DNA of 62,165 nucleotides, counting the filler, from Candidatus Delongbacteria bacterium (GTDB lineage Bacteria > UBA4055), in assembly GCA_016937995.1 (NCBI GenBank). It is 3 parts of 3 records of this genome, joined end to end, with 100 filler letters (N's around TTAATTAATTAA, not from the genome) between each part and the next. Parts side by side here need not be neighbours in the genome. Positions count along the whole stretch, not along the records: positions 44,377 to 62,165 come from JAFGVM010000068.1; 2 more parts are not named here. One strand, given 5' to 3'. The notes under the pieces are model-generated. The model saw only the letters and a program-made list of their open reading frames with translations. It was not told where the DNA came from and did no database searches. The position numbers were made by a program, and so were the translations under genes. Shown here piece after piece: positions 8,870-52,746 of the stretch; positions within the stretch are counted from its first letter, which is position 1, and every line of letters begins with the position of its first letter.

Positions 8870-11800
8870 ATGAAATTGAGATCAGTTTTAAATATTCTCA
8901 TGTTCATCTTGGTATTAGATCTTTTTTCTATTCAAAATTCAGACAGTACATCGTTTAAATTAATATATGATACCGGAATACTGAAAAATCAGGTTGAAGT
9001 ATTTCCTCCGGTAGGACAGAATTTTCTGACTAAATATAAAAAAGATTCAATTGTCTTTTCCATCAGCTCAACTAAATATAAACATGGTATTGAGATAGAT
9101 GAATCAATGCAGTATGTTGTCATATATGAAAGACTTTTCGAGGAAGATTATAAAAAATCAATAGTGATGAAGCTTCAGGATTATATCTCTCAAAGAACCG
9201 AATATGAAACAAGGGATCAGTGGTTCAAATCAGTAACGAAGGGCCTGGGAGTGGGAGAATATGGAGGTTTCCTGTCAGGTGAAGAAATTGCAATAGATAT
9301 TCCATTTAAAATTAAATCAAGGACTTTTCACAGGGTTTTTGGTGGGGATAAGATCGGATTGAGAGTAAAAGGATCCCTGTCATTAAGTATTACCGGTCAA
9401 AAGAGTTATACTGATCTTCCAAATGTTGAAGATTCAAGCTTTGATTTTACTCTCGATCAGACTCAGAATATTTCTATCAGAGGAAAAATAGGTACCAAAG
9501 TCGATGTTGATATTGCACAGAATACGGAGTCTCTGGATTTTGAGAACTCTCTTAAGTTAACTTATACCGGTGAGAGTGATGAGATCATACAGAAGTTCGA
9601 AGCAGGGAATATCGGTCTTAGTTTACCGGGTACCAGGTTCGTAAGTTACAGTGGTGTCAATAAAGGATTATTCGGTTTGAAAACTGTGATGCAGATAGGA
9701 AATCTGAAGAATACCACTATCGCATCATTTGAGAAAGGACAGAAAAATCAACTTACTGTTAAGGGTGGAGTGACAACAAGAGAAGTATCTATTAATGCGA
9801 AAAATTACCTGCCATACACTTATTTCTACATTGAGGACAGTTTTAAGGAAAATTTTGCTACAGAGAACAACTATGAAAATATACTTGCCCATGTTCCGTT
9901 ATCAACTTCAATTTATAAAATTCAACCCTATTCTCTCGAACTGTTCGTAACAATCGGGAATGAAGTAGGTACATTCCCGGATGCGGATATATATATTGAT
10001 TATACTGATAACTCTGATTCAATTGGTGTATATCCGAACAGTTACCCCAATTTATATAAACAGAACCGTGTAAAAAGATTAGAACCTGAGCAATATGAAA
10101 TAAATAACGAGCTTGGATATATCAGGTTAAAATCTGTTAATCTTGTAAGTGGACAGATCCTTGCAGTGAAATACATTAAACAACACTACCAATTATTGAC
10201 CGATACAATACACATAGGAAAAAAAGTAAGTGATACAAAATATGAGCTTCAGATAATAGCTGAAAAAGGTCAGAAATTCAGTGCTCCCTGGTCAGATCTT
10301 GAATGGAAAAACGTTTATTCTCTGGGAGGAACAGATGTCAGTAGAGAGGATTTTAAACTCACAATAACAAAAGATGTAGCCGGTACAACAAAATCCGAAG
10401 AATTGGATCCATCCGGAGTTCCGGTACCATATCTTCAATGGTATGAGGTGGAGGATGAGCAGGCTAATGACCTTGTGGATATAGGCTACCTGAACCCAGC
10501 TTACGGAGAGTTCAGATTCCCTAATCAGAGACCGTTCGAACCTGACAGCAACAGTGTGATCTATAAAACCACAGGACTTGCAGATACACTTTTTACAGAT
10601 CCTGAAATATATCAGGACCCTTATACGACATTTACTTCTCCATTCAATCTGAAATTTGTGATCACCAGTAAATCGAGTACTTATCAGCTTGGATTTAACG
10701 TGATCGAAGGATCGGAAGTTGTAAGGTCCGGAGCAACTGAATTACAAAAAGATGTGGATTATATAATAGATTATCACTCAGGACAGCTTTCTCTGATCAA
10801 TGACCTTTATCAAACAGCTGACATAGAAATTTCTTATGAATCTGCAACAATATTTCAACTCGATGAAAAAGTTCTTTTAGGTAACAGATTTGAATATTCT
10901 TTCAATAAAGATACGTACATAGGAGGTACCGTTCTTTATTTATCTGAATCAACAAATGAGGAAAGGGTCCATGTCGGGTATGAACCAAAAAGAAATCTTA
11001 CTCTGGATATTAACGGACAAACAAAATTTGATACACCTTTCATTACTAAGATGCTTGACAGATTACCTCTGATAGAAACTGACTCAAAATCATCATTTTC
11101 ACTGGAAGGTGAGGTTGCACAGATATATCCAAATCCCAACCCACTGGATGCGGCTTACATAGATGATTTTGAGAACAGCAAGAAAAATACTTCACTGGGT
11201 ATCAATTATTCAAGCTGGCATTACTCATCAGTACCGGATTATTATGAGACCCTTGTTTCTTATACACAATCAACTGATGTGACCGGTGATGGATTGATCT
11301 TACCAACATCATACTTTCTTCAGGCATATTCCGGAAATTCTGAAACAGATGAACCTGCATTTTACTGGTATAATCCCAATGATGATGATAAATTGGCAAA
11401 AGATGATATTTATACTGATGTTCCTGCAACGGAAAAAAACGATAAAGTATCGACTCTGGATATGATATTTAAGCCTATGAACAGATCTGAAGGTATCAAC
11501 GGTAATGATATTAGACCAGAAGATTCATGGGGTGGAGTTATGAAGTATCTTCATTCATCATATCAGGATATGAGAGAGATAAAATATATTGAATTTCTTG
11601 CTTCAACAAACAGAAATATAACATTGAATATTGACATTGGTGAATTGAGTGAGGATGTTATACCGGATGGATATCTGAACACTGAGGATATTAACAACAA
11701 TAATGTTCTTGATATTGTTGATAATTCTGAGGATACAGGACTGGATATGATGTCAGGACAAAATGATTTTAACCCTTTGTATCTCTTCGATCCAAACTCC

Positions 11801-14800
11801 CCTAGAGCAAAAGAAAATTATGAACGTTTTTCTTTTGATGATCACCCAGAAGAATCAGCAGGAAAACCAACTCCTGATTCCCAACTGGATAATTACTGGG
11901 ATTTTATTAAGACCGAGAAAAACGGAAGGCTGGATTCAGAGGACCTTGACGGTGGAGGTAACCTTGATAAGACTGTAAAAGCCTACAGGTATTCTCTTGA
12001 ACTGAGATCCAATCCAACTGTGGACCTAAATTATGTTATCAGTAAAGACTATAGTCCCGGTTCAGGTTTTGCACTTTACCGGGTACCTTTAGATGATAAA
12101 TTAAGAAAAATATTGAACAGTGAGCCTGATCTGGCAAAAATGAAATATCTGAAATTGTGGGTTAACAATTCAGCCGATACTATAAATACTACAAAAATTC
12201 AGTTCGTGACCCTTAACCTTGTAGGAAATGAATGGGCTGCAAGAGGAGACAGTAAAGGTAGAATTGAAGCTAAAACAATAAATAACGAAGATGATAAGGA
12301 AAGATACCATTCTCCACCTGGAGTAAAAAAACTTGATTCAGATAATTACGAGGTACCTGAGCAGTCCCTTTTAATGGACATAACTCTTGATCCGTTCTCA
12401 ACTTCAAACTTACCTAAAAATCCAACACTTACCAAATATTTGATAGGTGGAGAAAATTATTTATTATACGAAGAAATGAAAATGTTCATTCATGGTGGTA
12501 CGGAAAAGGATGATCCTTTATGGCCGGTGGATAGACCATTATACTTTGTCTACAGATTCGGCTCAGACTCTTTGAATTACTATGAGTATAGATCAAAACT
12601 TGTAGCAGGATGGAAAAATACAGAAGTTAATAATCAAATGATAATTCCTTTGAACGAATTAACCGAGTTGAAAACTTTAAGATCGGATGACGGTGCACGT
12701 ATTGACTCGATGTACATGAAAGGATTTAACGATGAACTGATAAAAAGATACATAGGTATTCGTGGAAATCCAACTCTTCAAAATGTAAAATATTTAAATG
12801 CAGGAATTATTGACTCAGCGAATACAGCCCTGAATACAGAGATCTGGCTTGATGAGTTACGCTTGGTCAAAGTAAAAAAAGATCCTGGTATGGCAATGAG
12901 AGCTAAATCAAGGATAGAATTGGCAGATGTGGCAACGGTTGATATGGAGATGACAAGGCAGGATGGAAATTTTCACAGAATAGAGGAGAAGAGCGGAAGT
13001 GGATTGAATTCTCAAAATTTCAATCTGAATACAACATTCAATCTGGATAAACTGGTTCCGCAAAAATTAGGGTTGAGAGTACCGCTTAAATATACATATT
13101 CAAACAGTGACAGTTATACAAAGTATCAGGGAAGTACTGACATCTTAGTTGATGAGAACAATATTCCTGATTCTGTAAGGATCATTAATAAAAGACATCA
13201 ATATGATTTCTCTGTCAACAAGACCTCTAAATCAACAAATCCTTTTCTTAAATATTCGATAGATAATATTTCATTTACAGGAAATGCTTCTTTCTCCAAT
13301 CTCAGTAATGCAACCTATCTGACTTCTGAATCTGAAAATTATAAATATAAGATCGGATATTCTCTGAATTTACCGGAATCATGGTTTTCTTTAAAACCTT
13401 TTGGCTGGGTTGGTGCTAATAGTTTCATGAAAGGGATGAAGGATTTTAAATTTGTATTCTTTCCATCAAGTTATACAACTAATTTAGAAACAACGAAAAA
13501 TAAAACTGTTTCATTGACCAGAAAGGGGAATAATACTACATCACAATTATTTGATGTTACAAGATCATTCAATACTAAAATGTCCCCGATACCTATATTG
13601 AATACCAGTTATGACCTGACTTTGAGATCTGATATGTTCAAAACAAAGATCGATACAATTGATACGAACAGCGGGGAAACTGTCACTCTGGTGGTTGATG
13701 ATAAGACCAGAGATTTTTCTGATATTGCATCTTTTAACTTTGGTGAACTGTCAACTCTGGATTCAAAATTGAATAATAATTTGAACTTAAACTTTTTTAA
13801 ATTCTGGACGAACGATCTGTCATTTAATACAGCATACAGTTGGAATGGTAACCTTGCAAATAATTCGATGGGAACTGACATAAAAAACCGGTATGATGCT
13901 AAGATCGGTACTAAATTGAAAACTAAGGATATTTTTACCGGAATTCAAAGTTCGATTGAATATTTTTTCCCTAAAAAGGAAGAAAAAAAAGAGACTGTAC
14001 AACATAACGATGATCCAGCTCCGCCTCAAAAAAATGATCCTAAAGATGTCAAAAAAACTGATAATATGAGGAATATTAGAAAAAGTAAGTCTTCTAATTC
14101 TGAAAAGAAAAAATCTATACTTGATTTTTTAAAGAATAATTTATCTGACCTTTCTCTGTCCTATTCACAAAACCGGGAAAACACATTTAATAATATCAAC
14201 TCCTTTGACCAGGCTGATCTGGGATTTATATTTGGAGTATCTTCCGAACCGGAAGATCTGGAATATGAAAATACCAGCTGGGGTGGTAGTTGGGCTTTAT
14301 CCGGAAGTACAAGATTGAGCCTATCTAATAATCTGGCTTTTGATGGAATAACTTATCAGTTCGGAAGATCTTACAGAGAAAACAATAATGAGGGTTTTGC
14401 AGGTACAGATACAGAGACAAACTTTGTATGGCCGTGGGTCACTGAAGAAGAGCATAAAAAAAGTGATGTGACCTCCTACATGATACCGAATTATTCTATT
14501 AATATTAAAGGTTTGGAAAAACTGATGATCAACTCTGAAAGTATATCATCAATAACAATATCACATCAAAAATCCGGTAATGTTTCTTCGGTCTGGTATA
14601 TGGAGAACAGCAGCCCTGATATGTACCTGACCGGTATTCCCGACCTGGATCCTAACATTCTTAAATTAAGGTCTAAAGCTTATAATGTTTCTTTCAGACC
14701 TTTGGCTTCTTTCAAGCTGAATCTTAAGAACGGATATAATTTTAGTGCTTCTTACAACTACACATACGATATGAAAGAGCAATATGCATACAATGACGGT

Positions 14801-15202
14801 GTTGCAGACATTCAGTCCGGTGATAAAAAATATTCCCGGGAGTTAAGGGTCTCAAGTGGATATAATCAAAAAGGCGGTTTCAAAATACCATTGAATTTTT
14901 GGCCTTTCAACGGTAAAAGACTGGATAATGATATTACCTACAACTTATCATTGTCTTATAACTCTTCAGAAACTTATAAATATGATCTTGAAGCAAAAGA
15001 ATATGAAGGATTTGCAGACGGGATAAAATCAGATAATTTTACTGTAGCTCCGGATATAACATATAAAATATCACAAAAACTAAGCGGTACAGCATCTTAT
15101 TCATATAATTATAATGAAAGCCAGAGTTATGGCGCAAGAAGTGTTGTGAATACAAACCATAAGTTCGAATTAAGAGCTGTGTTGAGTATCTCGGGAAGGT
15201 AA
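8870..15202 (+). CDS. sprA: SprA/Sov type IX secretion outer-membrane translocon
   Basis: 2110 aa with signal peptide. SprA-typical segments FENSLKLTYTGESDEIIQKFEAGN, KGLFGLKT, KNVYSLG, AYIDDFE and IWLDELRL. Beta-strand-rich C-terminus. Confidence 0.88.
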   Translation: MKLRSVLNILMFILVLDLFSIQNSDSTSFKLIYDTGILKNQVEVFPPVGQNFLTKYKKDSIVFSISSTKYKHGIEIDESMQYVVIYERLFEEDYKKSIVMKLQDYISQRTEYETRDQWFKSVTKGLGVGEYGGFLSGEEIAIDIPFKIKSRTFHRVFGGDKIGLRVKGSLSLSITGQKSYTDLPNVEDSSFDFTLDQTQNISIRGKIGTKVDVDIAQNTESLDFENSLKLTYTGESDEIIQKFEAGNIGLSLPGTRFVSYSGVNKGLFGLKTVMQIGNLKNTTIASFEKGQKNQLTVKGGVTTREVSINAKNYLPYTYFYIEDSFKENFATENNYENILAHVPLSTSIYKIQPYSLELFVTIGNEVGTFPDADIYIDYTDNSDSIGVYPNSYPNLYKQNRVKRLEPEQYEINNELGYIRLKSVNLVSGQILAVKYIKQHYQLLTDTIHIGKKVSDTKYELQIIAEKGQKFSAPWSDLEWKNVYSLGGTDVSREDFKLTITKDVAGTTKSEELDPSGVPVPYLQWYEVEDEQANDLVDIGYLNPAYGEFRFPNQRPFEPDSNSVIYKTTGLADTLFTDPEIYQDPYTTFTSPFNLKFVITSKSSTYQLGFNVIEGSEVVRSGATELQKDVDYIIDYHSGQLSLINDLYQTADIEISYESATIFQLDEKVLLGNRFEYSFNKDTYIGGTVLYLSESTNEERVHVGYEPKRNLTLDINGQTKFDTPFITKMLDRLPLIETDSKSSFSLEGEVAQIYPNPNPLDAAYIDDFENSKKNTSLGINYSSWHYSSVPDYYETLVSYTQSTDVTGDGLILPTSYFLQAYSGNSETDEPAFYWYNPNDDDKLAKDDIYTDVPATEKNDKVSTLDMIFKPMNRSEGINGNDIRPEDSWGGVMKYLHSSYQDMREIKYIEFLASTNRNITLNIDIGELSEDVIPDGYLNTEDINNNNVLDIVDNSEDTGLDMMSGQNDFNPLYLFDPNSPRAKENYERFSFDDHPEESAGKPTPDSQLDNYWDFIKTEKNGRLDSEDLDGGGNLDKTVKAYRYSLELRSNPTVDLNYVISKDYSPGSGFALYRVPLDDKLRKILNSEPDLAKMKYLKLWVNNSADTINTTKIQFVTLNLVGNEWAARGDSKGRIEAKTINNEDDKERYHSPPGVKKLDSDNYEVPEQSLLMDITLDPFSTSNLPKNPTLTKYLIGGENYLLYEEMKMFIHGGTEKDDPLWPVDRPLYFVYRFGSDSLNYYEYRSKLVAGWKNTEVNNQMIIPLNELTELKTLRSDDGARIDSMYMKGFNDELIKRYIGIRGNPTLQNVKYLNAGIIDSANTALNTEIWLDELRLVKVKKDPGMAMRAKSRIELADVATVDMEMTRQDGNFHRIEEKSGSGLNSQNFNLNTTFNLDKLVPQKLGLRVPLKYTYSNSDSYTKYQGSTDILVDENNIPDSVRIINKRHQYDFSVNKTSKSTNPFLKYSIDNISFTGNASFSNLSNATYLTSESENYKYKIGYSLNLPESWFSLKPFGWVGANSFMKGMKDFKFVFFPSSYTTNLETTKNKTVSLTRKGNNTTSQLFDVTRSFNTKMSPIPILNTSYDLTLRSDMFKTKIDTIDTNSGETVTLVVDDKTRDFSDIASFNFGELSTLDSKLNNNLNLNFFKFWTNDLSFNTAYSWNGNLANNSMGTDIKNRYDAKIGTKLKTKDIFTGIQSSIEYFFPKKEEKKETVQHNDDPAPPQKNDPKDVKKTDNMRNIRKSKSSNSEKKKSILDFLKNNLSDLSLSYSQNRENTFNNINSFDQADLGFIFGVSSEPEDLEYENTSWGGSWALSGSTRLSLSNNLAFDGITYQFGRSYRENNNEGFAGTDTETNFVWPWVTEEEHKKSDVTSYMIPNYSINIKGLEKLMINSESISSITISHQKSGNVSSVWYMENSSPDMYLTGIPDLDPNILKLRSKAYNVSFRPLASFKLNLKNGYNFSASYNYTYDMKEQYAYNDGVADIQSGDKKYSRELRVSSGYNQKGGFKIPLNFWPFNGKRLDNDITYNLSLSYNSSETYKYDLEAKEYEGFADGIKSDNFTVAPDITYKISQKLSGTASYSYNYNESQSYGARSVVNTNHKFELRAVLSISGR

Positions 15203-44489: not shown

Positions 44490-44650
44490 CTATTTAGTCC
44501 TCGCAATACGAAACCCGCCGTAGGAGTTCCTGCCGCCGGGGTCGTTGCCGTTGCGGTCAGAAACTTTGCAGCCGGCGTCGAGGTTGCCCCACGACCCGCC
44601 ACGAACAACACGGCACTGTCCCTGCGTGTACCAGTCCCAGCACCATTCCC
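44490..44650 (-). other. Putative DGR variable region (VR)
   Basis: About 64% GC over 44501-44650 (96/150 by hand count). 20 of the 24 codons between GGSW and GFR end in C. Confidence 0.72.
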
Positions 44651-45836
44651 AAACATTTCCACTCATATCATGAATTCCTAGCTCATTAGCTCTTTTTGTA
44701 GCTACGGGTTGTGTCTTTGATCCGGAATTTCCATCATACCAAGCAACATCACCGACATCATTACTCCCACTATAAGTGTTTCCTCTGCTCTGATTTCCGC
44801 CCTTAGCCGCATACTCCCATTCAGCCTCTGTCGGCAAACGGTAACCGTTCGCTTTGAAGTTACAATTCGTACTTTTTCCGCTTCCCGAATAGCACTTTGT
44901 CAATCCTTCCATTTCACTCAATTTGTTGCAGAACTCAACAGCATCGTACCAGCTTACTTGCTCGACAGGTAAGTTATCTCCTTTGAAATTACTCGGATTA
45001 TTGCCCATTACAGCTTTCCACTGAGCTTGGGTCACTTCCGTTTTACCTATATAGAAATCGCTTCTGGCATATACCATATTCGATTTTATTTCACTTATAG
45101 CATATCTGTATTTATTTTTAATTTCTGCTATCCGCCTTAACTCTTCTGCATTTCTCCTTTCTTCTTCAGTTTTTTTATCATTCCTCAATTTCTTCTCTTC
45201 GTTGCTGAGCAATGCCGTATATTTGCTGCTTGGATAATAAATTTTGAATTTATCGAACTCCGGTGAAAAATTATTCATATATTTATCAAGAGAGTCAAAG
45301 TATTCGTTAACACTTTGTCCATACGGTAACAAAAACCACTTCATATATAAATAATGCGCTTGTTCCGCCAAATCTGTGTTTGTATCATTCATCAGCTTTA
45401 TAATTATTTGCTTTGATTCTTCTTTTTTGTCTTGTTCAAAAATGTGCTTTGCATATCGCAGTTCTTTGAATGTGATATCTTCTTCTACTGTAGATTTAAC
45501 TTTTCCTACAAGAACTACCGAATAAGTGCCGTCAGACCCGTACCCGTTGTCTATTATCTGGAATCCCGGCATCAGAACTGTCTCTGCTTGTGTTTCAATG
45601 TAATCGTAAGTGGTCTGGAAGTTTTCAACTTTCGTAGTGGATTTGAGTTTCAATCCCGCTTTTTCAAGAGCTTGACGTTTTGCGTCCATTATAGCTTCCT
45701 GCCTGTCTTTCTGCTCGCCGTTCTTGTAATTGTCGCTTACTCCTCTTACAGCTACATCTACAAGGGCTTGTGCTTTTAATAGTGTGCTGAAAATTAACAA
45801 TGTCACAAATAATAGTTTCAGGATATTTTTACTCAT
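44490..45836 (-). CDS. Secreted LPP20-like + FGE-sulfatase (CLec-fold) protein; probable DGR target
   Basis: Signal peptide and FGE-sulfatase motifs KTEVTQAQW, PVEQVSWYDA, YRLPTEAEWEYAA, DMSGNVWEWC, RGGSW and GFR. GC-rich 3' end. Confidence 0.88.
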   Translation of the reverse strand: MSKNILKLLFVTLLIFSTLLKAQALVDVAVRGVSDNYKNGEQKDRQEAIMDAKRQALEKAGLKLKSTTKVENFQTTYDYIETQAETVLMPGFQIIDNGYGSDGTYSVVLVGKVKSTVEEDITFKELRYAKHIFEQDKKEESKQIIIKLMNDTNTDLAEQAHYLYMKWFLLPYGQSVNEYFDSLDKYMNNFSPEFDKFKIYYPSSKYTALLSNEEKKLRNDKKTEEERRNAEELRRIAEIKNKYRYAISEIKSNMVYARSDFYIGKTEVTQAQWKAVMGNNPSNFKGDNLPVEQVSWYDAVEFCNKLSEMEGLTKCYSGSGKSTNCNFKANGYRLPTEAEWEYAAKGGNQSRGNTYSGSNDVGDVAWYDGNSGSKTQPVATKRANELGIHDMSGNVWEWCWDWYTQGQCRVVRGGSWGNLDAGCKVSDRNGNDPGGRNSYGGFRIARTK

Positions 45837-46148: not shown

Positions 46149-46178
46149 AAAAAAAGGGTCGTATATATTACGACCCTT
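46149..46178 (-). terminator. efp terminator
   Basis: On the minus strand, AAGGGTCGTA-atata-TACGACCC followed by about 7 T. Confidence 0.85.
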
Positions 46179-46215: not shown

Positions 46216-46773
46216 CTATGCTCTGCTAATATACTCCCCGGTCCTTGTATCTATTTTGATCTTCTCCCCCTGCTTAATAAATGCCGGAACCTTAATTTCG
46301 TGACCATTAGCAAGTTTTGCATCTTTTATCAAACCACCTGAAGTATTACCTCTCTCAACATCCTCGGTATAATCGATCTCAGCAATAACAACAGTAGGCA
46401 ATTCAATTGAGACCACTCTGCCTTCATAGAACTGAACAGTGATATTCATCTCCTCCTGCAGGAACACAACATTATCTCCGATCTGATTCTCTTCGACCTC
46501 CAGCTGCTCATAGGTTTCATTATCCATAAATGTATAAGTGGTTCCTGTAGAGTAAAGATATTGCATTTCTCTGGTATCAAGTCTTAGATCATCAACAGCA
46601 TCGGAAGCAGGTATAATATCATTAACGATCTGTCCCGTAATAATATTTTCCAGCTTTAATTTCATAACACATGCTTTTTCACTGGGATTAAAATGCTCTG
46701 ATTTTAAAACTCTGAAGATCTCATTTTTCATCTTAAGAACGTTCCCGTTCCTGATCTCTTTGGCTTTTTTCAT
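46216..46773 (-). CDS. efp: Elongation factor P with an atypical loop tip
   Basis: 185 aa; MQYLY, FMDNETYEQ, ELP, RGNTSG, VPAFI..GE.IKIDTRTGEY.SRA. The loop reads PSEK. Confidence 0.92.
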   Translation of the reverse strand: MKKAKEIRNGNVLKMKNEIFRVLKSEHFNPSEKACVMKLKLENIITGQIVNDIIPASDAVDDLRLDTREMQYLYSTGTTYTFMDNETYEQLEVEENQIGDNVVFLQEEMNITVQFYEGRVVSIELPTVVIAEIDYTEDVERGNTSGGLIKDAKLANGHEIKVPAFIKQGEKIKIDTRTGEYISRA

Positions 46774-46839
46774 TGAAACTCCAATCTGAATTTAATTTTT
46801 AACGAAAATAATAATATTTTCATATTAAGTCAATAGCAT

Positions 46840-46866
46840 AAAAAAAAGGGTGCAAATACACCCCTT
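46840..46866 (-). terminator. Terminator after the kinase operon
   Basis: On the minus strand, GGGTG-TATTTG-CACCC followed by a T run. Confidence 0.7.
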
Positions 46867-46887
46867 CCATTTTTTACTTAATGAAAT

Positions 46888-48903
46888 CTAACTATCCAGC
46901 GCTTCTCTTACCGCTATGGACAGCTCTCTTTTTAAGAAAGGTTTCATTATAACATGCTTTATAGGAAGTACATCAACTCTGGTTTCATTTAACAGTTTGC
47001 TAAAGCCGGTGCACAGAATTATAGGCAGGTCCGGGTTTATCTCAAGTAGCTCCTCAGCCAATTCTATCCCTGTAATACCAGGCATAGATATATCTGTAAT
47101 GACCAGATCAAAATGATCAGGATCATTCCTGAATATCTTCAAAGCTTCATTACCTCTAAAACTGGTAGTAACAGAATAACCCAGCTCTGATAAGATCATC
47201 TTACCGAGTGCAGTGATCTGTTCTTCATCATCAATAAATAATATATTTTCATTACCGGTGGGAATTTCCTGTGAATTCTCTTCCACAACTTTCTCATATT
47301 CAAGTTCATTATACGGAAACATAATACTGAAAGTTGTTCCTTTACCAACTTCACTGTAAACCGAAATAGTACCATTCAGATTTTTTACGATTCCGTCAAT
47401 GACAGCAAGACCCAGACCTGTACCTTCACCTACTTTTTTTGTTGTATAGTATGGTTCAAAAATTCGATCCATCTCATTTTTCTTTATACCGATACCCGTA
47501 TCAGAAATGACCAGTTTAAGATAACTTCCCGGTGATATATCATAACCGTTTTGCTCAACATCAAATTCAGTTATGTTCTTATATTCCAGAGATATCCCTA
47601 AAATACCTCCTTTATCCTGCATAGCTTGAAAAGAATTTGTACATAGGTTCATTACGATCTGATGGATTTGAGTAGGATCAGCCATGACCGTACCTTGAAG
47701 CGTATTGATATCCTGCTTGATGTCGATAGTACTTGGTATAGATGCTCTTAATAATTTCAATGCTTCTTTTACTATGAGATCGATCCTTACAGGAATAAGT
47801 TCCTGCTCGGTCTTTCGACTTAATGTAAGGATTTGCCTAACAAGATCTTTTGCTCTGTTTCCTGCTCTTAGCACTTCTTTCAATTTAACGCTTGTTGTAT
47901 TGTTATCCTGCAGTTCCATCTTAGCCAGTTCTGTGTAACCCAGTATCGCTGTTAAAATATTGTTAAAATCATGAGCTATCCCACCTGCCAGAGTTCCAAT
48001 AGCTTCCATTTTCTGAGATTGCCTTAATTGTCTTTCCATTTGATTATGAACAGTCATGTCCCTTTTGATCGCAAAATACCCGTGATTCTTATTATCGCTG
48101 TTCCTCATAGGTGATATCGTACTGTCTTCCTCTATCAGTGAACCGTCCTTTCTTTTGTTCACTATCATTCCTCTCCATACATTACCGTTGGTAATAGTTT
48201 CCCAGAGTTCCTTGTATATTTTTTCAGACTGTTTTCCACTTTTTAATAATCTTGGATTTTGACCGATAACTTCAGCAGAAGTGTAACCTGTAATTCTCTC
48301 AAATGCCGGATTTACATATGTAATATTCCCGTCAAGATCAGTTATAATAATATCTTCTTCAGTTTGTTCAAGGATCATAGCCAGTCGATTAATTTCAGAA
48401 ATCCTCTCCTCTATTATGCTCTCCTGCTCCTGATTTATCTTTTTCAACTCCTTTTCAGCTTTTAACCTTAAGAATACTTCCTCAAATAATTTTTCATTTT
48501 TTTCTTCGAGTTCTTTTTGTATATCTGTAAGCTTAAGATGTGTTTTTATCCTTGCCAGAAGTTCATGAGGGTTGAATGGTTTTGTTATATAATCTACTCC
48601 CCCGCTTTCAAAACCCCTGATTATACTTTCTGAATCAGTTTTTATCGTTAGAAATAGTATCGGTATCTTTTTATATTCATCATTAGCTTTTATTTTTTCA
48701 CAAAGTTCAAAACCATTAATCTCAGGCATTATGACATCCAGTAAAATAATATCCGGTAATTCTTTCGACAGGATATTAAGAGCTTCCTCACTAGTAGTTG
48801 CAAAAGATAAGATATATCCTTCATTCTGCAAAAAATTTCCGACAACCTGGATATTCTTTGGAGTATCATCTATTATCAATACCTTGTATTTTTTTGTAAA
48901 CAT
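46888..48903 (-). CDS. Hybrid histidine kinase REC-PAS-HisKA-HATPase-REC
   Basis: N-terminal receiver (IIDD..LLDVIMP), PAS (YVNPAFE), AHDFNNIL and C-terminal receiver (ITDISMP). Confidence 0.92.
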   Translation of the reverse strand: MFTKKYKVLIIDDTPKNIQVVGNFLQNEGYILSFATTSEEALNILSKELPDIILLDVIMPEINGFELCEKIKANDEYKKIPILFLTIKTDSESIIRGFESGGVDYITKPFNPHELLARIKTHLKLTDIQKELEEKNEKLFEEVFLRLKAEKELKKINQEQESIIEERISEINRLAMILEQTEEDIIITDLDGNITYVNPAFERITGYTSAEVIGQNPRLLKSGKQSEKIYKELWETITNGNVWRGMIVNKRKDGSLIEEDSTISPMRNSDNKNHGYFAIKRDMTVHNQMERQLRQSQKMEAIGTLAGGIAHDFNNILTAILGYTELAKMELQDNNTTSVKLKEVLRAGNRAKDLVRQILTLSRKTEQELIPVRIDLIVKEALKLLRASIPSTIDIKQDINTLQGTVMADPTQIHQIVMNLCTNSFQAMQDKGGILGISLEYKNITEFDVEQNGYDISPGSYLKLVISDTGIGIKKNEMDRIFEPYYTTKKVGEGTGLGLAVIDGIVKNLNGTISVYSEVGKGTTFSIMFPYNELEYEKVVEENSQEIPTGNENILFIDDEEQITALGKMILSELGYSVTTSFRGNEALKIFRNDPDHFDLVITDISMPGITGIELAEELLEINPDLPIILCTGFSKLLNETRVDVLPIKHVIMKPFLKRELSIAVREALDS

Positions 48904-48933: not shown

Positions 48934-51900
48934 TTATACAACTCCTTCACACTTATCAATTATATCCTCAAAACTTCCCAACAATCTCTTGATGTTCTCG
49001 ATATCAAAATTGTTAACGGCATTTTTCAATTCTTTGGAAAATTTTGAAATTGTGTTGGAATTATGCTGAACTGATAATTTTTCAAGTTCAGATGAAAATT
49101 CTTTGATATCATCAAGATTTTGTTTTTCAATTGAATTTCTGTATTTATTAAAGATCTCTCCCTTGAGTTTTCTGAAAAATATTTCAGGATCTTTCAATTC
49201 TTCGTCCAGAATATAAATCTCCTTTGTATCCTGTTTAACTGTGAAAGGAATGAATTCTCTGAACTTGTTCAATAACTCTTTTCTGGAAATCGGTTTTCTT
49301 AAATAACCGCTGAATCTAGATCTTTCCAGTTTAACACTTTCACTTGACATCACAGATGCAGTAACAGCAATGACCGGAATATTCACTAAACTATTATCCG
49401 ACTTAATTTTGCTTATAGCCTCATATCCATCCATTTCAGGCATTCGTATATCCATCAATATGATATCAGGAACATAGAATTTTGCCATTTCAACAGCTTC
49501 CTTTCCATTAACAGCTTCAAAAACTTCAAAACCATGTTCCTCGCATAATTCTCTCAAAAGAATTCTGTTAGATTCAACATCATCAGCGATCAATATCTTT
49601 CTCTTTTCAAAAACAATATTCTCGAAGGTGTTTTCATCATGATCAACTTTTTTTATTTCACTGTCTATATGAACTTTCAGAAGATCAATTATGAATTTAG
49701 TACCCTTGTTCAATTCACTTTGAACTTGAATACTACCATTCATCATTTTTACCAGATTACTTGTAATTGCTAGTCCAAGACCTGTTCCTTTTGTAATTCT
49801 TTTAATTTTCGGATCTGATACCTGTACGAAAGGTTTGAATATTTTTTTCAAGTTCTCCGGGCTCATGCCCATCCCGCTATCTTCAATGATCAACCTGATA
49901 TCAGTATATCTTGGTTTAATATTTCTGAATTCTGTGATAAGCTTAATGTATCCTTTATTTGTAAATTTGATAGAATTGCTTATAAGGTTGAAAAGTATCT
50001 GTCTAAGTCTGCTTTCATCGAGAACTATCATATTAGTAATATCAGACTTGTGTTCGATTAAGAACTCAAGCCCTTTTAACTTTAGTTCCTTTTCAAAAAA
50101 TTGCTCGATCTCATAGACGGTACTTACCAAATTAAAGCTGGAATATTGTAATTCCATTTTTTTTGCTTCTATCTTTGAGATATCAAGTATATCATTGATC
50201 AGATTCAATAATGTGTTCCCGCCAGCTTTTATTGTCGAGATATAGCTTAATTGTTTACTTGTCAAAGGTGTCTTTTCCATAAGTTCGGTAAATCCGATTA
50301 TTGCATTCATCGGAGTTCTTATCTCGTGGCTCATATTCGCCAAGAACTCACTCTTGGCATTTGTAGCTTTCTCGGCAACATTCTTTGCTTTAACCAATTC
50401 GATCTCAGTTTTTTTCCTCAGATCTATCTCTCTGGCCAGTCTCCTGTTCCAGAAAAAAATGAATATCATTACTACCAAAGAAAAAATTATTACTTTCCAT
50501 ACAAGTGCATAATCTATAAGATCGCCTTCTTTGCCATGCCATTTTTCGAAAATTGAATTTTTTTCCTCAATAGAAATAGTAGCAATAGATTTATTAATTA
50601 TGCCCAGTAAAATTCTGTTATACTTTGATACTCCGATCTTATAATCACGGGAATATTCTGTAACTCCAACTACTTTCAGTGCTGTCAGCATCTTTTCTTT
50701 CTTGGAGTACTGAAATTCTGAATAGTGTCTTAAGAAAAGATCTATCTTTTTCTTTACAAGGTCGTTATAAGCAATGTCAGGATCCGAATAATAATAAAGT
50801 TGAATTTCCGGATAATCCCTTTTGATCAACTCTGTCTCTGAAGTTCCTTCTTGCACACCCAGTTTTAAATTTCCCACTTTTTCCAACCCATCGACAAAAT
50901 CCTGATCATTACGTCCAATAATAATAACTTGTGAAGTGAACAGCACATCAGAAAAATCCATGTATTTTGCTCTTTCAGTAGTTTCAGAAACCCCGTCTAT
51001 AATATCAATAGCTCCGGATTGCATGAGTTTTAATGTTTCTGCCCAGTTCTCACTTCTTACCCTCTCAAATTTTATGCCTGATCTTTCTGAAATAATGCTC
51101 CAAAGATCAGCTATAATCCCAACGTAATTACTATCCTGATCATACATTGAGTTCGGTGGCCAATAAGGATCACCTGAAATTTTAATCACAGGATTTTCTC
51201 CCAACCACTCATTTTCCCTTGTATTAATCTCGATCTTTCTGGTAGACAGGATCGATTCACCAAACCATTTGTTCCTGAATTCCCTGTTTTGTTTTTCAGG
51301 AATACTTCTGAGCACTTTGTTTACTATATTCAGCAATATTGTATCATTCTTAGTTACACCGATCGAAATTTTAGCTCTCCAGTCCGGAAGTTCATTGACG
51401 ACCTTAAGGTTTGTAATTAGTTCTTCCTGGGATATATGTGTAAATGCTGGTAAGTTTCCAATATAAGCATCAGCTTGACCGAAAGATACTGCCTCAATAC
51501 ATTCTTTGTTTGATGATTTTAATACCGGAAATACTTTTATCCCTGAAGCATTTATATACTCATGGATGTATGAGTCTTTATTAACTGCGATCGTTTTACC
51601 TTTAAGATCATTGAATTTCTTTATATCATCTCTGTCCGATTTTATAATTATCACTAAAGGAACATCTATGAACGGATCTGAAAATTTTAAAAATTCATCC
51701 CTGTTATTTGTTCTTACTACCGCAGAGATACCTTCATAAATTCCTTTCTTTGCATTCTCCAGTACAAATGACCACACACCCGGAACCACATTGATCTTGA
51801 TCCCGGTCTTCTTTTCAATAACGTTAATATAATCAGCTGACAGACCGGTATGTTTATCATTCTTATCAGCAAAATCAAATGGAGGCCATTTAAAATCAGC

Positions 51901-52746
51901 ACCAAAAGTAATTTCCTTGTTCGATTCGAGCCATCTCTTCTCTTCTTTTGAAAATTTAATCACACCATTTCCGGGATTGAAGGAATACAGATATTTAATA
52001 TCGCTTAACCATTTTGTAGAGATCGAATCAAATTCTTCCTTTGTAATGCTGTTCAGTCCTTCATTTATCAAATTCAACAGCTTATCATTTCCTTTTTTAA
52101 CAGAACCACGGTAGGACCTTTTGTATCCTTCTATAAAATCAAGTTGAATATAATGATTGCTTAGTTTATTTGATAGAAGATAATATTCGAGGTTCTCTTT
52201 AGGAGCAACGAACACTTTTAACTGTCCGCTTGTAGCCTCATCGAACAGATCAGTGTAATCTTCAAAAACTTCCAAAGTTTGCTCGGGATATTTTTTTTCT
52301 ATATAACTCGCAGTGTATCCTTTGGGAACTCCGATCTTGTACGCAAGTATATCATTCACATTCATGGATCTGCTGTAGCATCCTCTGTCTATGAAATAAC
52401 TGTACTCAGCATTCATAATACTTTTAGTAAAATCGAAGTCTTTATTTCTGTCTTCACTATGAAACAGTCCTGCATGGATATCAGCTTTGCCCTGCTTTAC
52501 CATTGACAGTGTACTGTCCCATGTAGCTGAGATAAATTTTATTTTTATTCCTGTTTTTTTAGACCATAGTCTCCAGAGATCAATTAATATGCCATCTGAT
52601 TCACCTTTTTCATTAACGAACTTAAATGGAGGATTATCAAGATTATGAGCAATGGTTACGGATCTGAATTCTTTGATCTGAGCAAATGACATTTGAAATA
52701 GAACAAATATCGTAAGAATGAAAAATATGAAATTATCTCGTTTCAT
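48934..52746 (-). CDS. BvgS/EvgS-like membrane hybrid kinase with three periplasmic SBP family 3 domains
   Basis: Three PP(F/N)...G...D-x-W/I repeats, a TM helix, FLANMSHEIRTPMN, GTGLGL and receiver LMDIRMP. Confidence 0.9.
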   Translation of the reverse strand: MKRDNFIFFILTIFVLFQMSFAQIKEFRSVTIAHNLDNPPFKFVNEKGESDGILIDLWRLWSKKTGIKIKFISATWDSTLSMVKQGKADIHAGLFHSEDRNKDFDFTKSIMNAEYSYFIDRGCYSRSMNVNDILAYKIGVPKGYTASYIEKKYPEQTLEVFEDYTDLFDEATSGQLKVFVAPKENLEYYLLSNKLSNHYIQLDFIEGYKRSYRGSVKKGNDKLLNLINEGLNSITKEEFDSISTKWLSDIKYLYSFNPGNGVIKFSKEEKRWLESNKEITFGADFKWPPFDFADKNDKHTGLSADYINVIEKKTGIKINVVPGVWSFVLENAKKGIYEGISAVVRTNNRDEFLKFSDPFIDVPLVIIIKSDRDDIKKFNDLKGKTIAVNKDSYIHEYINASGIKVFPVLKSSNKECIEAVSFGQADAYIGNLPAFTHISQEELITNLKVVNELPDWRAKISIGVTKNDTILLNIVNKVLRSIPEKQNREFRNKWFGESILSTRKIEINTRENEWLGENPVIKISGDPYWPPNSMYDQDSNYVGIIADLWSIISERSGIKFERVRSENWAETLKLMQSGAIDIIDGVSETTERAKYMDFSDVLFTSQVIIIGRNDQDFVDGLEKVGNLKLGVQEGTSETELIKRDYPEIQLYYYSDPDIAYNDLVKKKIDLFLRHYSEFQYSKKEKMLTALKVVGVTEYSRDYKIGVSKYNRILLGIINKSIATISIEEKNSIFEKWHGKEGDLIDYALVWKVIIFSLVVMIFIFFWNRRLAREIDLRKKTEIELVKAKNVAEKATNAKSEFLANMSHEIRTPMNAIIGFTELMEKTPLTSKQLSYISTIKAGGNTLLNLINDILDISKIEAKKMELQYSSFNLVSTVYEIEQFFEKELKLKGLEFLIEHKSDITNMIVLDESRLRQILFNLISNSIKFTNKGYIKLITEFRNIKPRYTDIRLIIEDSGMGMSPENLKKIFKPFVQVSDPKIKRITKGTGLGLAITSNLVKMMNGSIQVQSELNKGTKFIIDLLKVHIDSEIKKVDHDENTFENIVFEKRKILIADDVESNRILLRELCEEHGFEVFEAVNGKEAVEMAKFYVPDIILMDIRMPEMDGYEAISKIKSDNSLVNIPVIAVTASVMSSESVKLERSRFSGYLRKPISRKELLNKFREFIPFTVKQDTKEIYILDEELKDPEIFFRKLKGEIFNKYRNSIEKQNLDDIKEFSSELEKLSVQHNSNTISKFSKELKNAVNNFDIENIKRLLGSFEDIIDKCEGVV

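Follow-up and report, generated by a model that had tools for sequence, protein, structure and literature searches.

The window, by which we mean the whole 62,165-nucleotide stretch of Candidatus Delongbacteria DNA that was analyzed, carries on its minus strand an open reading frame of 185 amino acids that encodes an EF-P (efp; Table 1). Three Pfam domains matched above their cutoffs (EFP_N, PF08207, 44 bits; EFP, PF01132, 80.6 bits; Elong-fact-P_C, PF09285, 74.6 bits), and TIGR00038, the NCBIfam equivalog model for efp, scored 210.2 bits against a cutoff of 185.8 bits. Foldseek returned TM scores of 0.88 to 0.90 to the structures 3oyy and 6s8z, and all 10 columns that are invariant in a 23-sequence EF-P alignment are kept by the window protein. 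Models for EfpL/YeiP scored below their cutoffs (NF003392, 121 versus 216 bits; TIGR02178, 110 versus 264 bits). The original prediction, which was made from the sequence alone, held that the protein is intact apart from one loop, and the domain and family matches bear this out.

A Shine-Dalgarno-like motif precedes efp, and terminator-like hairpins flank it on both sides. Three terminator-like sites were found in the region compared to a mean of 0.5 in shuffled sequence. One of the hairpins ends the kinase gene upstream, which makes efp look like a separate transcription unit. No contig of metatranscriptome X4 lay on the stretch, a result that says nothing about expression. The pair of kinase genes upstream of efp is conserved at only one related locus, L001. 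On the other side of efp, the FGE-sulfatase domain protein has a hydrophobic N terminus that is a putative signal peptide, as well as a weak FlgT_N-like match below cutoff.

Table 1. Positions of the efp gene, its loop codons, its flanking signals, and other genes in the window and at related loci
Feature	Position	Strand	Basis or remark
efp, 185 aa, three-domain EF-P (KOW-like N-terminal, OB, C-terminal)	46216..46773	-	Pfam, TIGR00038, Foldseek
H27-C35 codons, including the 7-residue beta3-beta4 loop N29-P-S-E-K-A-C35	46669..46695	-	sequence; loop limits from model strands
CCC = P30, Pro at -2 of the tip	46684..46686	-	G there in Arg-tip sister group
GAA = E32, place of the modified Lys/Arg tip	46678..46680	-	aligned without gaps to 1yby and 3oyy (HMMER)
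AAA = K33, invariant basic residue at +1; proposed functional cation	46675..46677	-	alignments A2 and A3
Cys35, +3 of the tip	46669..46671	-	
Domain III loop Y135-T144, YTEDVERGNT	46342..46371	-	alignments
GGAG, Shine-Dalgarno-like, 5 nt before ATG	46779..46782	-	read from sequence
Promoter-like TTGACT-17-TATTTT, 9/12 matches	46805..46833	-	weak; 3 sites found, shuffled mean 3.4
Terminator-like hairpin and T-run closing the upstream kinase gene	46843..46868	-	sequence scan
Terminator-like hairpin, 10-bp stem and T-run, 38 nt past the efp stop	46154..46178	-	sequence scan
Hybrid response-regulator/PAS/histidine-kinase gene	46888..48903	-	directly upstream of efp
Sensor kinase, 1270 aa; putative repeated periplasmic solute-binding-like domains	48934..52746	-	next gene upstream
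448-aa protein, FGE-sulfatase (SUMF1-like) domain	44490..45836	-	
2110-aa open reading frame	8870..15202	+	largest in the window
TraB/PrgY/GumN-family gene between GT9-like gene and earP	L046:1690-2601	-	230-238 bits
TraB/PrgY/GumN-family gene between GT9-like gene and earP	L049:560-1462	+	230-238 bits
DUF3857/transglutaminase-like gene upstream of earP	L044:3-1484		other Arg-type genomes
Divergent EF-P-like loci	L038 (G010), L039 (G008), L040 (G012), L041 (G015), L042 (G011), L043 (G014), L037 (G007)		

The one canonical EF-P feature that the window protein lacks is a basic loop apex, either Lys or Arg. The codons of the loop and its approach are CAT TTT AAT CCC AGT GAA AAA GCA TGT, which encode H27-F-N-P30-S-E32-K33-A-C35, the same codons and residues that had been read initially. 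In HMMER alignments that were gap-free in the loop region, E32 lined up with the tip Lys of 1yby ("hvkpgkgaaf") and with R32 of the Pseudomonas aeruginosa EF-P 3oyy ("fnksgrnaav"), in agreement with the original placing of Glu at the normally modified tip. Moreover, an AlphaFold2 model of the protein (mean pLDDT 87.6, pTM 0.68) predicted strands at residues 18 to 28 and 36 to 43, leaving a seven-residue loop from 29 to 35 with E32 in the center, but because canonical EF-Ps made up the guiding alignment, its loop register is not independent evidence. We refer to proteins with this loop as the PSEK type. Every PSEK protein has Cys35, a position at which Ala, Ser, or Gly is found in canonical EF-Ps.

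Sequencing error had been named beforehand as one way in which the acidic tip might be spurious, and it is contradicted both by contigs from a second study and by 10 relatives that carry the motif. Among Logan contigs, one from run X2 (record 6) spans positions 46550 to 46724 with 0 differences, and one from run X3, which belongs to the second study (record 9), spans 46466 to 46807 and differs only at 46540 and 46600, such that the loop codons are unchanged in both. The assembly itself may derive from run X1. Among 5.8 billion protein clusters, a search picked out six close relatives at 92, 71, 68, 66, 63, and 63% identity, below which identity dropped to 48% or less, and P-S-E-K was present in each of the six. 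When 185,579 species, each represented by a single genome, were scanned with clade peptide patterns, 151 stretches matched, four of which encode a relative. These four loci, from three Candidatus Delongbacteria MAGs and one labelled Cloacimonadota, all encode N-P-S-E-K-A-C-V-M in proteins with 55 to 92% identity to that of the window. Thus, the motif is not unique to this copy, and all 10 relatives keep N/K-P-S-E-K-A/K-C-V-M (53 to 93% identity among those compared). Residues N29 to M37 are invariant in alignment A3, and K33 is invariant in alignments A2 and A3. We conclude that the acidic apex in the EF-P loop is real and above chance.

The loop is conserved as protein while its codons drift. 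E32 is encoded by GAA in the window as well as in each of the four related genomes, and synonymous variation among the relatives was found at other loop codons (CCC/CCT/CCA, AGT/AGC, GCA/GCT/GCC, TGT/TGC, and GTT/GTG/GTA). The dN/dS ratio was 0.033 between the window and L001, a pair with dS of 1.8 and therefore near saturation, and 0.045 between L001 and L002, with dS of 0.87. Judging by these codon comparisons, we conclude that the PSEK efp is under strong purifying selection.

The PSEK type is rare. Only one entry of the clade (375 bits) was found among 1.84 billion representatives, with the next match at 200 bits. The tip residue in 263 loop-bearing rows of fetched EF-Ps, a sample biased towards relatives of the query and containing near-duplicates, was K in 170, R in 47, N in 36, Q in 3, and E in 7, and all seven E-tip rows belonged to the PSEK clade. 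A metagenome scan found two loci only, which were contigs of the already known P0002 and L003. As the E-tip rows, the library entry, and the metagenome loci all belong to this clade, the PSEK type is confined to one lineage.

Gene copies and modification enzymes were counted in four related genomes, G001 to G004 (2.0 to 2.6 Mb), that stand in for the window's own genome; all are MAGs of unstated completeness, in which unassembled DNA could hide a second efp or a modifier. Each contained a single match to TIGR00038 over cutoff, and the sole other match scored 12 bits. The PSEK copy is thus the only efp in four of four related genomes, and this result, together with strong purifying selection, leads us to reject the reading of the gene as a paralog with altered function, which the original prediction had entertained. 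We likewise consider it very improbable that the gene is an artifact, a pseudogene, or a redundant extra copy beside a canonical efp. Such an explanation could appeal to copy number having been read from related genomes rather than from the whole genome of the window, but it is opposed by the agreement of the second-study contigs, the motif in ten relatives, the strong selection, the absence of another efp from all four genomes, and the gene's own Shine-Dalgarno motif and flanking terminator-like hairpins.

None of the known EF-P modifiers was found in the four related genomes. EarP (PF10093) was absent from all four, and no EarP-like sequence was found in the window or at the PSEK loci (best tblastn E value, 0.42). 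EpmA (TIGR00462) had no match over cutoff in any of the four, its best matches being synthetase-sized frames of 498 to 590 amino acids, and EpmC was found in none. EpmB (TIGR03821) was likewise without a match over cutoff, and a KamA-like gene of 156 bits was present in G004 only. YmfI (NF047420), searched without the other pathway genes ynbB and gsaB, gave no match over cutoff in the four genomes; the best short-chain matches of the SDR family (205 to 213 bits), checked in G001 and G003, were FabG (TIGR01830, 333 to 351 bits), which adjoins FabD in G003. A DHS-like gene was found in one genome of the four, again G004. Because the DHS-like gene and the KamA-like gene, the latter below the EpmB cutoff, each occur in G004 only, they cannot explain the clade and were rejected as modifiers. 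We conclude that the window protein belongs to the EF-P family but lacks the basic tip and lies outside all described activation types. The original prediction had excluded the EpmA, EarP, aminopentanol, and EfpL types, and the EfpL/YeiP scores and the missing modifiers agree; its suggestion of a new EF-P subtype is supported. Its other two suggestions that remain, K33 as the tip and a novel modification, both fit the sequence.

Genes near efp were also considered as a source of modifiers. A conserved neighbor was rejected as a candidate, as no efp neighbor is conserved beyond the closest relative: the window and L001 have the hybrid kinase, L003 has AhcY and a putative outer-membrane protein, and L004 has a GT9-like gene and MsrBA. 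The GT9-like neighbor in G004 was rejected as a replacement for EarP because a GT9-like gene is also found near earP-efp in genomes with Arg-type EF-P. One way in which an acidic loop could nonetheless function is if the side chain of E32 or K33 bears a new modification, the work of an enzyme with no established connection to EF-P, and reaches the CCA end in place of a bare K33. The absence of known modifiers leaves room for another, and most characterized EF-P types need modification of the tip, according to the available part of PMC12856214. Moreover, the invariance of nine residues, N29 to M37 with the unusual Cys35 among them, is more than one contact would call for and would be in keeping with enzyme recognition. 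No conserved neighbor of efp points to such a modifier, however, the DHS-like and KamA-like genes are each limited to one genome in four, and unmodified EF-Ps are an established class that includes the PGKGP subfamily and several Arg-type proteins. We therefore regard a new modification as rather unlikely.

The distribution of EF-P types within the phylum points to the origin of the PSEK loop. Among 15 genomes in the phylum of G001, the PSEK type is the only efp in four, and nine (G005, G006, G008, G009, G010, G011, G012, G014, and G015) encode an Arg-tip EF-P with the loop YNKG(A/N)R(S/G)AS. G007 has only a very divergent EF-P-like gene, and no efp was found in G013. EarP was present in nine of nine Arg-tip genomes, eight times over cutoff and once as a 20.7-bit fragment at a contig end, and was absent from the four PSEK genomes, G007, and G013. 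The earP gene directly adjoins efp in eight of the nine; in G009, the two are found on separate contigs, each at an end. Gene order at the Arg-type loci is GT9-like <-> TraB/PrgY-family gene - earP - efp - msrBA. In G004, the order is the same GT9-like gene (58 to 62% identity) <-> a 181-nt spacer - the PSEK efp - the same msrBA (72 to 78% identity), and no earP remnant was found at that locus, in the window, or at the other PSEK loci.

Phylogeny was consistent with a single origin of the acidic tip. In a quick, unrooted maximum-likelihood tree of 65 EF-Ps, the E-tip proteins clustered together (SH-aLRT 96), G004 branching off first. They lie inside the mostly Arg-tip half of the tree, the base of which is without resolution, and the tree does not resolve them as the sister group of the Delongbacteria Arg clade. 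As the base is unresolved and the tree unrooted, the direction of change rests on synteny and the distribution of types. The Arg-type loop K-G-A-R-S-A-S and the PSEK loop N-P-S-E-K-A-C differ at six of seven positions, including the gain of Pro at -2. In the portion of Volkwein et al. 2019 (PMC6544042) available to us, Pro at -2 is described as preventing EarP activation of Escherichia coli EF-P and as typical of Lys-type EF-Ps. Loss of the rhamnose donor was rejected as the driver of the change: RmlC was over cutoff in all four PSEK genomes, and RmlD was seen in all four as well, twice over cutoff, once at 223.5 against 224.05, and once truncated. Because the dTDP-rhamnose donor pathway is kept, the loss is specific to EarP. 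We conclude that the PSEK EF-P apparently descends from an EarP-dependent Arg-tip type and that it arose together with the loss of earP at the same locus, a point beyond the reach of the original prediction.

Other features of these genomes are recorded here as observations. In two Arg-type genomes, a TraB/PrgY/GumN-family gene separates the GT9-like gene from earP, and the corresponding G004 locus lacks both this gene and earP; other Arg-type genomes have a DUF3857/transglutaminase-like gene upstream of earP (Table 1). G003, the source of L003, is labelled Candidatus Cloacimonadota yet is grouped with the Delongbacteria phylum, and its EF-P falls firmly inside the PSEK clade. Finally, a very divergent EF-P-like gene, scoring 84 to 144 bits on TIGR00038 and hence below cutoff, was found in seven genomes. 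It is a second copy in six Delongbacteria with Arg/EarP-type EF-P and the only copy found in G007, and it is absent from the four PSEK genomes. These proteins lack a basic tip, their beta3-beta4 loop being either degenerate or shortened (e.g., INLSDNNSKSV). Pfam matched all three domains in L038 and only the C-terminal domain in L040.

The PSEK EF-P resembles EarP-dependent Arg-type EF-Ps (P. aeruginosa and P. putida; 3oyy and 6j7m) in fold (TM score 0.88, 38% identity) and in its loop length of seven residues, and the EarP type is among its best matches of solved structure at 131 bits, essentially tied with 1yby at 132 bits. Within the phylum, the EF-Ps nearest to it have an Arg tip and an adjoining earP, and the PSEK gene of G004 sits at the same locus. 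Unlike the EarP type, in which the tip is Arg and, in the accessible text of PMC6544042, Pro at -2 is avoided, the PSEK type has a Glu tip, Pro at -2, and Lys at +1, and EarP is missing from all of the PSEK genomes even though dTDP-rhamnose genes remain. Outside the beta3-beta4 loop, the nearly universal Pro of the domain III motif TEP is replaced in the crown PSEK group only, giving TE followed by D, E, or N. The change came later, as G004 keeps YTEPAVQGNT. PSEK proteins and the Arg-type sister group have GNT in common, rather than GDT, in domain III.

Demand for EF-P function appears to continue in the PSEK genomes. ValRS contained one PPP run at 13 of 13 loci examined, including those of four of four PSEK genomes, and in G001 to G003 the triplet lies at IPPPNVTG.LHIGH. 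The importance of the ValRS PPP triplet is noted in the available text of PMC11388002, citing Starosta et al. 2014. The observed/expected ratio of Pro-Pro was 0.99 in PSEK genomes (60 in 66,396 amino acids) and 1.05 in Arg/EarP genomes (64 in 57,992 amino acids), a small comparison of 58 to 66 thousand residues per group of sampled coding sequence, and depletion of polyproline in PSEK genomes is thus not supported. PPP was counted twice in the PSEK genomes versus six times in the Arg/EarP genomes, where a single genome supplied all six. This small coding sample shows no genomic sign of EF-P dysfunction of the kinds discussed in the part of Brewer and Wagner available to us.

An alternative is that the PSEK EF-P has kept ribosome binding and that its catalytic help is weakened or redirected, with the load passing, once EarP had gone, to other factors (e.g., ABCF proteins of the Uup/YfmR kind) or with other stalling motifs as its target; the conserved PSEK loop would then have taken on an altered role. 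An acidic tip is hard to square with the canonical mechanism, and the crown group also changed its domain III loop. Proline makes up a low 3.0% of residues and Pro-Pro is rare, at about 0.9 per 1000 amino acids, such that demand may be modest. Different loop types rescue different motifs, as stated in section 6 of PMC12931083, a source available in part. A decaying function, however, would not be expected to leave the loop as the most conserved part of the protein at dN/dS of 0.03 to 0.05; moreover, the Pro-Pro frequency equals that of EarP-type relatives and the ValRS PPP is kept. We consider a weakened or redirected factor unlikely.

We instead favor, with moderate confidence, a working, single housekeeping EF-P that descends from a rhamnosylated Arg type and now would rely on K33 and P30. 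Its ancestor would have carried an Arg tip and been activated by the rhamnosyltransferase EarP, the product of the adjoining gene. Within a sub-lineage of Candidatus Delongbacteria, an in-place deletion would have removed earP, the loop would have been remodeled from K-G-A-R-S-A-S into N-P-S-E-K-A-C, and purifying selection would have kept it frozen since then. The resulting protein may still promote Pro-Pro bond formation and polyproline rescue, probably unmodified, with K33 supplying the working cation and P30 stiffening the loop. E32 would be secondary and might form a hydrogen bond to ribose or base or a salt bridge inside the loop. One consideration counts against the PSEK EF-P as a working factor, as a carboxylate beside the tRNA backbone should repel it, and a positively charged tip is regarded as essential in the available passages of PMC5615199 and PMC6544042.

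A role for K33 can be read from other EF-Ps with a nonbasic tip. In the query-biased sample, a K or R at +1 or +2 was found in 45 of 46 N-, Q-, or E-tip EF-Ps compared to 6 of 217 with a K or R tip, and Pro at -2 was found in 36 of 36 N-tip rows and 7 of 7 E-tip rows. This "displaced cation" layout suggests that K33 is the functional cation. Asn-tip EF-Ps (P-G-N-x-R) share with N-P-S-E-K a nonbasic apex and the invariable Pro at -2, and they mostly have a nonbasic residue at -3 and a basic residue just past the apex (35 of 36). The two classes differ in that the Asn-tip apex is neutral and its basic residue is mostly Arg at +2, whereas the PSEK apex is acidic and followed by Lys at +1, and they occupy separate parts of the 65-EF-P tree. 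Some Asn-tip EF-Ps have been linked to DHS-like genes, according to the part of Volkwein et al. 2019 (PMC6544042) at hand, genes that only one of the four PSEK genomes contains. Another likeness is to the unmodified PGKGP subfamily (Actinobacteria and others; 6s8z, TM score 0.90), which also has no known modification enzyme and in which a proline-stiffened loop is the proposed substitute for modification. The PGKGP apex is Lys with Pro on both sides; the PSEK apex is Glu with Pro at -2 only and Lys at +1.

Another possibility is that E32 itself does the work, which we regard as doubtful. An enzyme might extend the carboxyl with an amine, for instance a polyamine or an amino acid, in a reversal of beta-lysylation chemistry that would produce a long cationic arm. 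Alternatively, the bare carboxylate might position the CCA end, held through hydrogen bonds to ribose or base or through a bound metal ion. If true, a working E32 would break the rule of an obligatorily basic tip in EF-P/IF5A, and an amine extension would add a further kind of EF-P activation.

The PSEK type is also distinct from the remaining described systems. EfpL/YeiP, the E. coli paralog (8s8u), has the EF-P fold and works unmodified through a changed loop; that loop has nine residues and an Arg tip in a second copy beside EF-P, whereas the PSEK loop has seven residues in the only copy. The EpmA/EpmB type has a P-G-K-G loop with a beta-lysylated Lys tip, and the 5-aminopentanol type of Bacillus subtilis has a Lys tip and YmfI. 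The PSEK protein has neither set of loop features, and the corresponding enzymes had no match over cutoff in any of the four genomes. Among the tips of 1,166 EF-Ps tabulated in the available text of Volkwein et al. 2019 (PMC6544042), K accounts for 81.11%, R for 14.75%, N for 2.23%, M for 0.77%, Q for 0.6%, and A for 0.51%, and E does not appear. No glutamate tip was found in the available texts, supplementary tables aside, of PMC6544042, bioRxiv 2023.09.18.558224, PMC11388002, PMC12856214, and PMC12931083. Literature searches found no acidic tip mutants (K34E, R32E, K32E, or K34D), only text artifacts of "R32^EF-P^", and nothing that joined EF-P and Delongbacteria. We conclude that an acidic EF-P tip is new relative to the literature searched, to the extent of its available texts and supplementary tables aside.

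EF-P and a/eIF5A are described as needing a basic, usually modified, tip at the peptidyl-transferase center, and here an acidic residue occupies the tip of the cell's only EF-P under strong selection. Close relatives with an Arg tip and EarP provide a ready comparison pair, which makes two questions testable: what the tip needs chemically and how a lineage escapes dependence on a modification enzyme. The layout in common with the Asn-tip class hints at a general "displaced cation" solution, which could guide the engineering of modification-free EF-Ps.
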